Shown piece after piece: positions 14,840 to 62,665 of a stretch of DNA of 64,000 nucleotides (position 1 is the stretch's first letter; every line of letters begins with the position of its first letter). Location of the stretch: positions 85,498,001 to 85,562,000 of the forward strand of contig OX597824.1 of assembly GCA_951406725.2 (NCBI GenBank), read 5' to 3'. Under the pieces are notes generated by a model, which saw only the letters and a list, made by a program, of their open reading frames with translations, had not been told where the DNA came from and did not search any database. This DNA comes from Octopus vulgaris. Taxonomy: Eukaryota. The position numbers were made by a program, and so were the translations under genes.

Positions 14840-15146
14840 GTTTACATATCTAAAATATAATCAATATTTTTAAGATATAAATAATTTATATAATATAATA
14901 ATTTTACTTGAATATATAAATACACACACACATACATGGCAAAAGAATTCTACAAAATTTTTTTTTTTGCCACCCTATATTGATTAATTATGAATTTTCT
15001 GGTTAATTCCGTAATGGAATCGACGGCTTATATTTATTTGCTGCCGATAAATTTGGCGCGAGTGCGACGATTTGAACATTTTAGGTCAGATATAACCTTG
15101 GCAAGGTCGGAAATGCCTCGTGAAAATATCTGTTCCGACTTGGGCT

Positions 15147-15253
15147 ATTTCTTACTGAAGAATCTGAGGGCCTTTGGAAGATTGGCTTGATTTAATTTAA
15201 TCAGGTTAGTTTACCATTAATCAGCAGATGAAACGGTATATCGTATAAGAAAT
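15147..15253 (+). ncRNA. Type I hammerhead ribozyme with long stem II (copy 1)
   Basis: ATTTCTTA-CTGAAGA-ATCTG[long hairpin]CAGAT-GAAA-CGGTATATCG-TA-TAAGAAAT. Perfect 8-bp stem I, canonical core, predicted cleavage after GUA at 15245. Confidence 0.85.
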
Positions 15254-15639
15254 TACAGGGTAAATGTTTTTTAAATTTTCTCCTGGTTTACGGAATTAAT
15301 TTTCATTTGCGGTTGAAGCTTTGGCTGTTATTTCTAGTGGGTGAATGGCCTATTATGGCCGTTCCTTGATTGTTGATGTTGAACTTAAAAATGGTCTATG
15401 ACTATTTAATTTTTTCCCACTAGGCCGCTGGTGGCAAAAGAATTCTACAAAATTTTTTTTTGCCACCCTATATTGATTAATTATGAATTTTCTGGTTAAT
15501 TCCGTAATGGAATCGACGGCTTATATTTATTTGCTGCCGATAAATTTGGCGCGAGTGCGACGATTTGAAAATTTTAGGTCAGATATAACCTTGGCAAGGT
15601 CGGAAATGCCTCGTGAAAATATCTGTTCCGACTTGGGCT

Positions 15640-15746
15640 ATTTCTTACTGAAGAATCTGAGGGCCTTTGGAAGATTGGCTTGATTTAATTTAATCAGGTT
15701 AGTTTACCATTAATCAGCAGATGAAACGGTATATCGTATAAGAAAT
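15640..15746 (+). ncRNA. Type I hammerhead ribozyme with long stem II (copy 2)
   Basis: Same as 15147-15253, offset by 493. GUA at 15736-15738. Confidence 0.85.
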
Positions 15747-16370
15747 TACAGGGTAAATGTTTTTTAAATTTTCTCCTGGTTTACGGAATTAATTTTCATT
15801 TGCGGTTGAAGCTTTGGCTGTTATTTCTAGTGGGTGAATGGCCTATTATGGCCGTTCCTTGATTGTTGATGTTGAACTTAAAAATGACTTAAAAATGGTC
15901 TATGACTTAAAAATGGTCTATGACTATTTAATTTTTTCCCACTAGGCCGCTGGTGGCAAAGAATTCTACAAAATTTTTTTGTAAATCATCCAGTTCACTG
16001 TACGTCAGTTGGATACCACATAAATATGGATATAATGCAAATTATAAACAATAAATTAAATAGTGATTCAATTGATAATCCAATAATTTATTAATATAAC
16101 ATAATATAGTATAAATAGAATATAAGATAACATTTAAAAAAAAAGCATTAAAAAACCAAAAGAGTCAACAATTTGTCTCGAAGGGGTGTGTAAATCATCC
16201 AGTTCACTGTACGTCAGTTGGATACCACATAAATATGGATATAATGCAAATTATAAACAATAAATTAAATAGTGATTCAATTGATAATCCAATAATTTAT
16301 TAATATAACATAATATAGTATAAATAGAATATAAGATAACATTTAAAAAAAAGCATTAAAAAACCAAAAG

Positions 16371-16450
16371 AGTCAACAATTTGTCTCGATTTACATACAT
16401 TATTTGATTTATAAACAATTCAATCCACTGATATAAGTCTCATTAGAGCT
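16371..16450 (-). ncRNA. Degenerate HHR in PLE LTR
   Basis: Minus strand: AGCT-CTAATGA-GACTTATAT...TATGTAAATC-GAGAC-AAATT-GTT-GACT. The core is mutated at different positions from the inverted copy. Confidence 0.5.
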
Positions 16451-48973: not shown

Positions 48974-49131
48974 GGAGAAATTGTACAGAATGTATAAATA
49001 GATTATGAGTAAAGCACCGGCACAGTTTCGATTACCTTTTGTTATCCGTAGGGACTTCGTAGTGGCGGTTGGGGTAACAGTATTAATAAAATAGGAGATG
49101 GAATGTGTAATAGACTTTATATATATGTAGG

Positions 49132-49183
<52 letters not shown>

Positions 49184-49209
49184 CATACATATATATAAAG
49201 TATAATTTA

Positions 49210-49241
<32 letters not shown>

Positions 49242-49451
49242 ATGATAAATATCAAAGTGAGTTATATACAGTAGCGGTAACACATCGTGACGTATTTTTG
49301 CCATTTCAATATGGCTAACCCCTAAGGGTGGATGCTACTGTAGTTTTTAGCCCCAGGAAGACACACTCCTCCAGCTGGCCATAGACACACTATCTGTGTC
49401 CTGTCAGTATTTGCAAAGGGAAGTCATCCTTCCCGTCTTCAACTTATGATA

Positions 49452-49496
49452 CACACGGACTCGAGTTTCGAGGTATTGACCTCTCGTCAGCGTGTG
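49452..49496 (-). ncRNA. Intact type I hammerhead ribozyme
   Basis: Exact reverse complement of 49905-49949. Confidence 0.92.
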
Positions 49497-49904
49497 ACAA
49501 TCATAGTTGTCGCCGATAATTAGATTTCCTTCACAAATACTTATACTTTTTCCAGCGTCCACTGTCGCTGATATTGAAAAAGTGAAATCAAACAATGATA
49601 AATATCAAAGTGAGTTATATACAGTAGCGGTAACACATCGTGACGTATTTTTGCCATTTCAATATGGCTAACCCCTAAGGTGTGTGTCCTCCTGGGGCTA
49701 AAAACTACAGTAGCATCCACCCTTGGGAGTTAGCCATATTGAAATGGCAAAAATACGTCACGATATGTTCCCGCTACTGTATATAACTCACTTTGATATT
49801 TATCATTGTTTGATTTCACTTTTTCAATATCAGCGACAGTGGACGCTGGAAAAAGTATAAGTATTTGTGAAGGAAATCTAATTATCGGCGACAACTATGA
49901 TTGT

Positions 49905-49949
49905 CACACGCTGACGAGAGGTCAATACCTCGAAACTCGAGTCCGTGTG
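49905..49949 (+). ncRNA. Intact type I hammerhead ribozyme
   Basis: CACACG-CTGACGA-GAGGT CAAT ACCTC-GAAA-CTCGAG-TC-CGTGTG. Canonical CUGANGA/GAAA core, 6-bp stem I (extendable with ATGAT/ATCAT), 5-bp stem II, palindromic stem III, GUC cleavage after 49943. Confidence 0.92.
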
Positions 49950-50133
49950 TATCATAAGTTGAAGACGGGAAGGATGACTTCCCTTTGCAAATACTGACAG
50001 GACACAGATAGTGTGTCTATGGCCAGCTGGAGGAGTGTGTCCTCCTGGGGCTAAAAACTACAGTAGCATCCACCCTGAGGGGTTAGCCATATTGAAATGG
50101 CAAAAATACGTCACGATATATATATATATATAT

Positions 50134-57084: not shown

Positions 57085-57669
57085 CAAGGCGTCGAGTTGG
57101 CAGAAACATTAGCACACTGGGCAAAGTGCTTAGCGGTATATCGTTTGTCTTTACATTCTGAGATCAAATTCCGTCGAGGTCGACTTTGTCTTTCATCCTT
57201 TCGGGGTCGATAAATTGGGTACCAGTTACGTACTAGGGTCGATATAATTGACTTAATCCGTTTGTCTGTCCTTGTTTGTTCCCTCTGTGTTTAACCTCTT
57301 GTGGGTAGTAAAGAAATAGGTATTTGGTCTGCCGTTACGTTCTGAGTTCAAATTCCACCGAGGTCGACTTTGTCCTTCATCCTTTCGAGGTCGATAAATT
57401 GAGTACCAGTTGCGTACTAGGGTCGATATAATTGACTTGATCCGTTTGTCTGTCCTTGTTTGTCCCCTCTGTGTTTAACCTCTTATGGGTAGTAAAGAAA
57501 TAGGTATTTGGTGTACCGTTACGTTCTGAGTTCAAATTCCGCCGAGGTCGACTTTGTCTTTCATCCTTTCGGGGTCGATAAATTAGATACTAGTTGCGTA
57601 CTGGGGTCGATCTAATCGGCTGGCTCCCGCCCCCTAAAAATTTCGAGCCTTGTGCCTAGAGTAGAAAAA
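57085..57669 (+). mobile_element. SINE family C trimer (one head, three bodies, period 184 bp)
   Basis: ttctgag at 57156, 57340 and 57524. A single 15-bp TSD aatatactatgggtc at 57070-57084 and 57670-57684. Confidence 0.9.
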
Positions 57670-62052: not shown

Positions 62053-62506
62053 CGAAAAGTCACTGATATCGAAAAGGTGTAAACAGGCAATAATAAATCT
62101 CAGAGCGAGGCATAAACAGTAGCTGCACGACATCGTGATGTATATTTTCCACTTAAATCTGGCTAACCCCTAAGGGTGGATGCTACTGTAGCTTGTAGCC
62201 CCAGGAGGACATCTCCTCCAGCTGGCTATTGACACACTTTCTGTGCTCTATCAGTATTTGCAAAGGGGAGTCATCCTTCCCGTTTTCAATCAATGATACA
62301 TACGGACTCGAGTTTCTGGATATTGACCCGTCATCGGCGTGTGACAATCAGCGGTTGTCGATGAAAAGTAGGCCTCCCTCTGCAAACATATATCCTTTTT
62401 CCAGTGACGAAAAGTCACTGATATCTAAAAGGTGTAAACAGGCAATAATAAATCTCTGAGTGAGGTATAAACAGTAGCTGCACGACATCGTGAAGTATAC
62501 TTACCA
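62053..62506 (-). mobile_element. Second subfamily of the 353/355-nt retrozyme-like element (about 1.28 monomers)
   Basis: cgaaaagtcactgatatc at 62053 and 62408 (period 355). Collinear with 49241-49680 (ggctaacccctaagggtggatgctactgtag is identical). Confidence 0.85.
62299..62343 (-). ncRNA. Hammerhead ribozyme variant
   Basis: Minus strand: CACACG-CCGATGA-CGGGT CAAT ATCCA-GAAA-CTCGAG-TC-CGTATG. U4>C in the core, one stem I mismatch and one stem II mismatch. Confidence 0.7.
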
Positions 62507-62529
62507 TATATATATATATATATATATAT

Positions 62530-62665
62530 CACCGTGATCACCGTGACCGACCAGGCTATCAGATGTTGCTACACATCGCTGGTCACAATGCGCTTTGCAT
62601 TGTTTTAGCCTTCAAGTGACGCCAATAGAAAAAAGAGTGAGAGAAAGTTATGACGAAAGAGTACA
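62530..62665 (-). mobile_element. SINE family A body fragment with another tail (W)
   Basis: Reverse complement gtactctttcgtcataactttctctcactctt (A body), then a unique tail ending (tcacggtga)2. Confidence 0.6.

Follow-up and report, generated by a model that had tools for sequence, protein, structure and literature searches.

Within the window analysed here, by which we mean the whole stretch of 64,000 nucleotides, two inverted copies of a 353-nt repeat lie head to head at 49241-50119 between TA microsatellite flanks, and an older relative is found further along. The features are listed below, with unit position 1 being the first base 3' of the predicted cleavage site.

49118..49240, no strand: TA microsatellite, left target flank
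49241..49680, minus strand: long-end (site B) arm, 440 nt or 1.25 units, 5' end at unit position 131 and 3' end at 217
49241..49283, minus strand: PLE-type "tail", unit positions 175-217, present only at the end of the site B arm (tail as in PMC3846280, PMC8557442 and PMC11167929, in part)
49446..49504, minus strand: hammerhead identical to that of the opposite arm (Rfam core 49452-49496), with cleavage predicted between 49458 and 49457
49678..49680, no strand: head-to-head junction, 3-nt microhomology
49678..50119, plus strand: short-end (site A) arm, 442 nt or 1.25 units, 5' end at unit position 88 and 3' end at 174-176
49897..49955, plus strand: type I hammerhead (Rfam core 49905-49949) whose stem I is extended and whose helix III holds the palindrome CUCGAG; cleavage is predicted after 49943
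50118..50133, no strand: TA microsatellite, right target flank
62059..62515, minus strand: older single arm of 1.29 units from a related subfamily at 78% identity, separate from the inverted locus

Self-comparison of the window returned direct repeats of 87 and 89 nt at a spacing of 353 nt, and the two inverted arms match each other over 397 nt at 98% identity. The 3' terminal bases of the site A arm (unit 174-176) are also part of the TA tract, and both arms carry a C>A substitution at unit position 294. The longest ATG ORF of the tandem unit has 38 amino acids, and the unit is non-coding. These results bear out the first-pass annotation, which had described a non-coding unit captured as two inverted arms of about 1.25 units each. 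Folded as a circle, the unit has a z-score of -4.8 against 100 dinucleotide shuffles, and a stable, self-paired circle is predicted. As the locus holds one ribozyme per strand, release of a monomer by double cleavage is impossible from this locus alone. If 49241-50119 were read through, the transcript would pair with itself over ~400 bp, and RNA editing or small-RNA pathways would be likely to act on this duplex. Other tandem repeats of the window lie at 14937-15886 (period 493), 15980-16389 (period 209), and 57151-57616 (period 184), and positions 62540-62620 share with both flanks of another locus (L191) a short common repeat beside TA tracts that hold retrozyme or PLE insertions.

The Rfam model Hammerhead_1 (RF00163) matches one type I hammerhead in each arm, at 49905-49949 on the plus strand and 49452-49496 on the minus strand (32.2 bits, E of 6.5e-6 for 1 kb), which are the two positions predicted from the letters alone. 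The gathering score of the model is 34, so the window has no match at that threshold; matches to microsatellite and hairpin miRNA families were dismissed as artefacts. The GUC of the predicted cleavage site in the plus arm ends at 49943. Helix III is reduced to one C-G pair with UCGA as its loop and lies in the palindrome CUCGAG. In this the ribozyme resembles the axolotl HHR_Amex1, which likewise has a single-pair helix III with a palindromic loop and which cleaves poorly as a monomer but well as a dimer (PMC7229834, in part). The active core is absent from the minimum-energy fold predicted for the unit. Within the circle, predicted pairing reaches 0.64 in stem I, falls to ∼0.3 in stem II, and is 0 in stem III. 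Given the minimal helix III and this weak predicted stem pairing, self-cleavage stands as a prediction. Among complete hammerhead cores, 158 of 161 are intact. Across 37 hammerheads taken from subfamilies both young and old, the core bases GAAA and UC never vary, pairing holds in 91% of helix cells, and 12 cells have changed on both sides compared to 3.0 in shuffles, a control that ignores relatedness. The helix III hexamer mainly remains palindromic (CUCGAG, with CCCGGG in two old copies). Judged by these alignments, the catalytic core is kept across subfamilies. Most old subfamilies lack the G-C pair found at the base of stem II in the young family.

We searched the assembly (2.8 Gb in 227 contigs) for further copies and found 439 exact occurrences of the 33-nt ribozyme core and 1826 of a shared internal motif; the copies are spread over many contigs. 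The main sample comprised 84 fetched loci, picked by best BLAST score or from the first 100 exact core matches, and 82 remained once two segmental duplicates had been removed. A second sample added 19 loci, 14 of them picked by a motif spanning site A, and B arms are thus favored in it; selection by best BLAST score and exact motifs likewise biases the samples toward young, longer copies. Copies diverge from the column majority by 1.1%, and the family is young and dispersed, with older subfamilies. At least two intact ribozymes lie in one arm at 34 of the 82 loci. Arms longer than 0, 1, 2, 3, 4, 5, and 6 units number 117, 80, 26, 7, 3, 2, and 1, respectively, in a sample biased to at least one unit, and tandem arms extend up to six units. 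No RT or other ORF is attached to the copies and no LTR layout surrounds them in the sampled loci. The earlier view of a young family of the non-LTR retrozyme type with an intact ribozyme is supported by the 353-nt tandem unit, the type I hammerhead, the lack of an LTR layout, the low divergence, and the intact cores. One locus (L267) is rearranged and was unusable. At L139:400-900 lies a distant inverted non-coding element that has the central GGCCAGCTGG...CCTGGGGCTAAA motif in common with this family and probably represents a separate family of this type.

Contigs from sequencing runs (X1, X3, X7, and X8) were compared with 49241-49593, and the unit is nearly unchanged under two organism codes, with about half of its words present under eight. 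Going by these matches, the family may be shared among related species. The contigs of four runs presumed to be RNA all join 49593 to 49241, one of them being 383 nt long (353+30); since tandem DNA yields the same joins, these contigs are no evidence for a circle.

The first-pass annotation had expected the ends of the copies to be random permutations of the unit. This stood for the 5' ends, which are scattered over the unit (135 ends), but not for the 3' ends, which fall at two fixed PLE-type sites: site A (unit 171-179 by BLAST, 174 at non-TA targets) and site B (215-222), 41 to 46 nt apart. Within 5 nt of the cleavage site, we counted 4 of the 135 5' ends, where ∼4 are expected by chance, and none of the 3' ends. 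The same two 3' sites are used by subfamilies at 72 to 92% identity.

About half of the short arrays of this family are inverted, and these follow a pairing rule. Among 43 nonredundant inverted loci, 39 combine one A end with one B end, none is AA or BB, and 4 have one atypical end (binomial P of 4e-12 for one of each); the count was 41 of 45 before the two segmental duplicates were removed. The second sample, with 11 inverted loci among its 19, gave 8 A+B, 1 BB (L264, an exception to the rule), and 2 atypical, so that both samples together hold 54 inverted loci with 47 A+B, 1 BB, 0 AA, and 6 atypical, or A+B in 47 of 48 typed loci. Single arms, 41 in all, end at A in 31 cases, at B in 5, and elsewhere in 5. 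TA adjoins 114 of 121 A/B ends, and two insertions at non-TA targets (L062 and L080) show target duplications of ∼11 bp. The head-to-head junctions overlap by at least 1 nt at 30 of 43 loci, and the 5' offsets between arms range from 0 to 176.

PLEs are known for a 30- to 40-bp tail on one inverted repeat, partial tandems, and a TA bias (PMC8557442 and PMC3846280, in part). The two-site 3' ends with inverted arms are the tail and inverted-repeat footprint of PLEs, and the family likewise shows 5' truncation, partial tandems, and AT-rich or TA targets; its tail measures 41 to 46 nt against the 30 to 40 nt of PLEs in the accessible parts of those papers. Two fixed 3' ends, A+B pairing, and TA targets support the tie to PLE machinery that had been suggested at the outset. 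The pattern that had been named as speaking against a retrozyme, copies with fixed ends that sit as LTRs of an RT-coding PLE, was found in one part only: the 3' ends are fixed, but no sampled copy flanks an RT ORF of its own, and the fixed 3' ends therefore support PLE mobilization in trans. We consider it very likely that PLEs mobilize this family.

The nature of the template can be read from the variants that copies share. All 167 crossings of the cleavage site lack an indel, and the template was therefore continuous at that site. At seven haplotype columns, copies from different loci mismatch in 29.5% of comparisons, those in opposite arms in 3.6%, and those within one arm in 1.9%, and the arms agree at all shared columns in 36 of 42 loci, compared to a fraction of 0.29 in permutations (maximum of 0.52). 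Seventeen locus-private substitutions are present in all copies of their locus (∼0.2 expected by chance), 10 of which span both arms. Variants found in all turns of one arm with at least two turns recur in the opposite arm in 6 of 6 distinct cases. Twelve variants occupy all copies of both arms, and the eight that span two or more registers fit a monomer read repeatedly. A further 170 variants are confined to a single copy, and 71 occur in one arm only, although the other arm covers the same place; we read the latter as later mutations. At one locus (L058), both arms read G,C,G,G in the same register, which calls for a multimeric template, and three further variants are common to only some copies. 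The all-copy variants lean toward A>G (6 of 25 versus 14 of 170, P of 0.03), a post hoc result not used as evidence. From these patterns, the template was probably for the most part a single circular RNA, and the tandems seem to have arisen on insertion. A shared haplotype would also be expected of sibling molecules transcribed from a single homogeneous array, which are an alternative to a single template.

The genome holds young PLEs with an RT, a C-terminal GIY-YIG domain, and a Neptune-type CX4CxxC linker; we scored the best 150 of 6136 GIY-YIG candidates. These local autonomous PLEs have two ends of their own, ∼40 nt apart, in TA tracts, and all five inverted loci examined pair a short with a long end, the long end being forced by the query in two. 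The tail of the retrozyme unit is a few nucleotides longer than that of these PLEs, a point against the proposed mobilization. No terminal sequence is shared with the unit among 50 sampled PLE loci or in 20 loci of one further PLE family, and no sampled retrozyme copy was found as the terminal repeat of a coding PLE. The PLE fragments near copies belong to several unrelated families. Relatives near PLEs at L135, L126, and L139 proved to be separate insertions, and L069 and L272, which adjoin an older PLE family (93 to 96% among copies), are read as nested insertions. At L205, L050, and L270 a TA tract separates the retrozyme from PLE ends that face it tail to tail. In a single case, L002:1-2036 (extended in L191), a young Neptune-like PLE that is truncated at its 5' end and stops at its long site is joined head to head to a retrozyme arm; TA lies on both outer sides, and the retrozyme end, at 274, is atypical. 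Mismatches number 8 in 1021 positions between the PLE arm and its closest relatives and 1 in 652 between the retrozyme arm and the majority, and given this low divergence of both arms, the two possibly inserted together, which would point to a partner PLE family.

Among these PLEs, a very young intact family (L127:985-5760 and L121-L133) has a 781-amino-acid frame at 98 to 100% between most copies, an upstream frame of 479 amino acids that matches no Pfam family clearly, and both partial tandems and a tail of 40 nt. By eye, several local PLE families, at the 3' ends of L191-L230, L112, and L127, carry a hammerhead-like motif in which UUGA replaces CUGA and helix III is palindromic; Rfam gave no hammerhead in the eight PLE loci scanned.

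Retrozymes as a kind of element are already known (PMC7229834 and PMC7761336, each in part, and 10.64898/2026.07.22.740005). Like the metazoan non-LTR retrozymes, this family has a non-coding tandem unit within the 170- to 400-nt range with one type I hammerhead each, a GC content below 50%, a predicted self-paired circle, and co-occurrence with PLEs (PMC7229834, in part). It differs in forming dispersed short arrays of at most six units, about half of them inverted. Non-LTR retrozymes are recognized by the lack of an LTR, a primer-binding site, and a polypurine tract and, where present, by target duplications of more than 4 bp; the duplications here are of ∼11 bp. Plant LTR retrozymes, in contrast, have type III hammerheads placed in LTRs and 4-bp target duplications. 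In the accessible part of PMC7229834, PLEs are only a strong candidate for retrozyme mobilization and no analysis of retrozyme ends is given; in the accessible literature at large, we found no published end analysis of any retrozyme. The vertebrate retrozymes described in a preprint that sampled no mollusc (Li, Clavereau & Pollet, 10.64898/2026.07.22.740005) led to the same conclusion, that PLEs move retrozymes, from co-occurrence and pLTR homology, whereas the evidence here is an insertion footprint; tandems are explained there by local amplification, whereas ours look formed on insertion.

Neptune-type PLEs share with this family two internal RT starts, a tail restricted to one of the inverted arms, partial tandems, truncated 5' ends, TA/AT-rich targets, a target duplication of ∼10 bp when visible, and a hammerhead upstream of the start sites (PMC8557442, PMC3846280, and PMC11167929, in part). 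The unit differs in having no ORF, lacks the RT and GIY-YIG ORF of an autonomous PLE, shows no terminal homology to sampled local PLEs, and carries a canonical CUGAnGA core where most local autonomous PLEs examined have the UUGA-type variant. Nonautonomous Chlamys PLEs such as MRC1 are likewise multicopy, head to tail, and found at microsatellite targets, but they share 3' ends with autonomous families and mostly lack hammerheads, unlike this family (PMC8557442, in part).

We therefore propose, with a probability of about 0.68, that this non-coding hammerhead repeat is inserted by a PLE RT/endonuclease that copies one probably circular RNA from two internal start sites. Loci with at least two tandem ribozymes would be transcribed, probably via read-through or Pol II, which is favored because the sense strand has a T5 run. 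Monomers of 353 nt would be cut out by the hammerheads, which would probably act as dimers through CUCGAG, and then be closed by a host ligase. A Neptune-like PLE protein would then nick both strands of AT-rich DNA ∼11 nt apart, one DNA end priming at site A (unit 171-174), where a predicted hairpin has its tip, and the other at site B (215-222). Both cDNAs would go round the template in one direction, with displacement of the first by the second, and each would end at a random point before microhomology joined them head to head; if only one cDNA were kept, a single arm, mostly ending at A, would result. For a lizard PLE in vitro, RT starts at two internal sites that define the tail, and both strands are cut and extended; the protein was modeled as a dimer. 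Against our scheme, start-site use did not vary by strand (PMC11167929). We advance more tentatively, at slightly short of an even chance, the broader idea that a PLE RT dimer primes both ends of the staggered cut at two fixed sites on one circular RNA and rolls round it, and that the same mechanism makes the tail, inverted repeats, and partial tandems of all EN+ PLEs.

Unlikely, but the most serious competitor, is a scheme in which the PLE copies an uncleaved linear multimeric transcript, the arrays grow by unequal crossing over, and the ribozyme plays a minor role. It can draw on L058, on the weak helix III, on the in vitro work in which unprocessed RNA was the dominant substrate and ribozyme mutants inserted normally (PMC11167929), and on the vertebrate preprint, where local tandem amplification is proposed and only one of nine dimers cleaved (10.64898/2026.07.22.740005). 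However, at 13 loci, including L068, which is a local duplication within a satellite, every copy carries the private variants of its locus, and these differ from locus to locus, so that re-expansion from a single unit is routine; at columns with at least three copies, 11 variants occur in all copies and 5 in some. No inversion junction has been inherited by an unlinked locus, the sole recurrence being L089/L270, whose haplotypes differ and which were thus rejected as parent and daughter; conservation of the catalytic core also argues against a minor role.

The inverted arm might instead be a fold-back, self-primed copy of the first cDNA, as was suggested for PLE inverted repeats (PMC3846280, in part), or the arms might have been converted later. 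Three variants shared off-register between arms would agree with this, as would 5' ends at most 7 nt apart at 6 of 43 junctions. Yet in 9 of the 34 A+B loci made of two pieces, the present locus included, neither arm is contained in the other, 22 and 21 of the 34 exclude one direction each, and the offsets reach 176; this containment comparison contradicts fold-back as a general route, which also leaves the A+B rule without a reason. The 170 single-copy variants also speak against this reading. We therefore consider it very improbable. Equally improbable is that the unit is a solo terminal repeat (pLTR) of an unsampled autonomous PLE, even if Xenopus retrozymes resemble pLTRs (10.64898/2026.07.22.740005) and the PLE comparison covered the best 150 candidates: in young and old subfamilies alike, a further unit lies upstream of site A at a period of 353, or of 358 in the case of one older copy, this upstream sequence never enters a family-specific ORF, and the neighboring PLE fragments come from several unrelated families. 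LINE twin priming typically gives a head-to-head inversion with microhomology, and such inversions are seen here, but a SINE-like repeat moved in this way should have the 5' end of its A arm at the second priming site, which is so in only 1 of 39 cases (L014), the arms overlap in the template, and neither poly(A) nor a simple-repeat tail of its own is present. The dispersal of the copies on many contigs counts against a plain satellite, and we give these last two readings almost no credence. Insertion by a PLE RT/endonuclease from a probably circular RNA thus remains our preferred explanation.

In the open-access literature searched, we found no published description of the 353-nt family; a prior listing in Repbase or Dfam is possible. 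The tail on one inverted arm is known qualitatively, but the counted one-of-each rule and the shared-template evidence were not found in print. The mechanism of retrozyme mobilization has been described as remaining to be elucidated (10.64898/2026.07.22.740005), and the family gives unusually direct genomic evidence for how retrozymes and PLEs insert, in the form of countable rules: one of each start site, shared private variants, and no stop at the cleavage site. It bears on the identity of the enzyme that mobilizes animal retrozymes and on whether a circle serves as its template, and also on how PLEs make their tails and inverted repeats. With a 353-nt substrate and intact PLE ORFs in the same genome, both sets of questions are directly testable in vitro. 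If priming on a circle by a PLE dimer is true, target-primed rolling-circle reverse transcription of a retrozyme circle from an animal would here be on genomic record for the first time.
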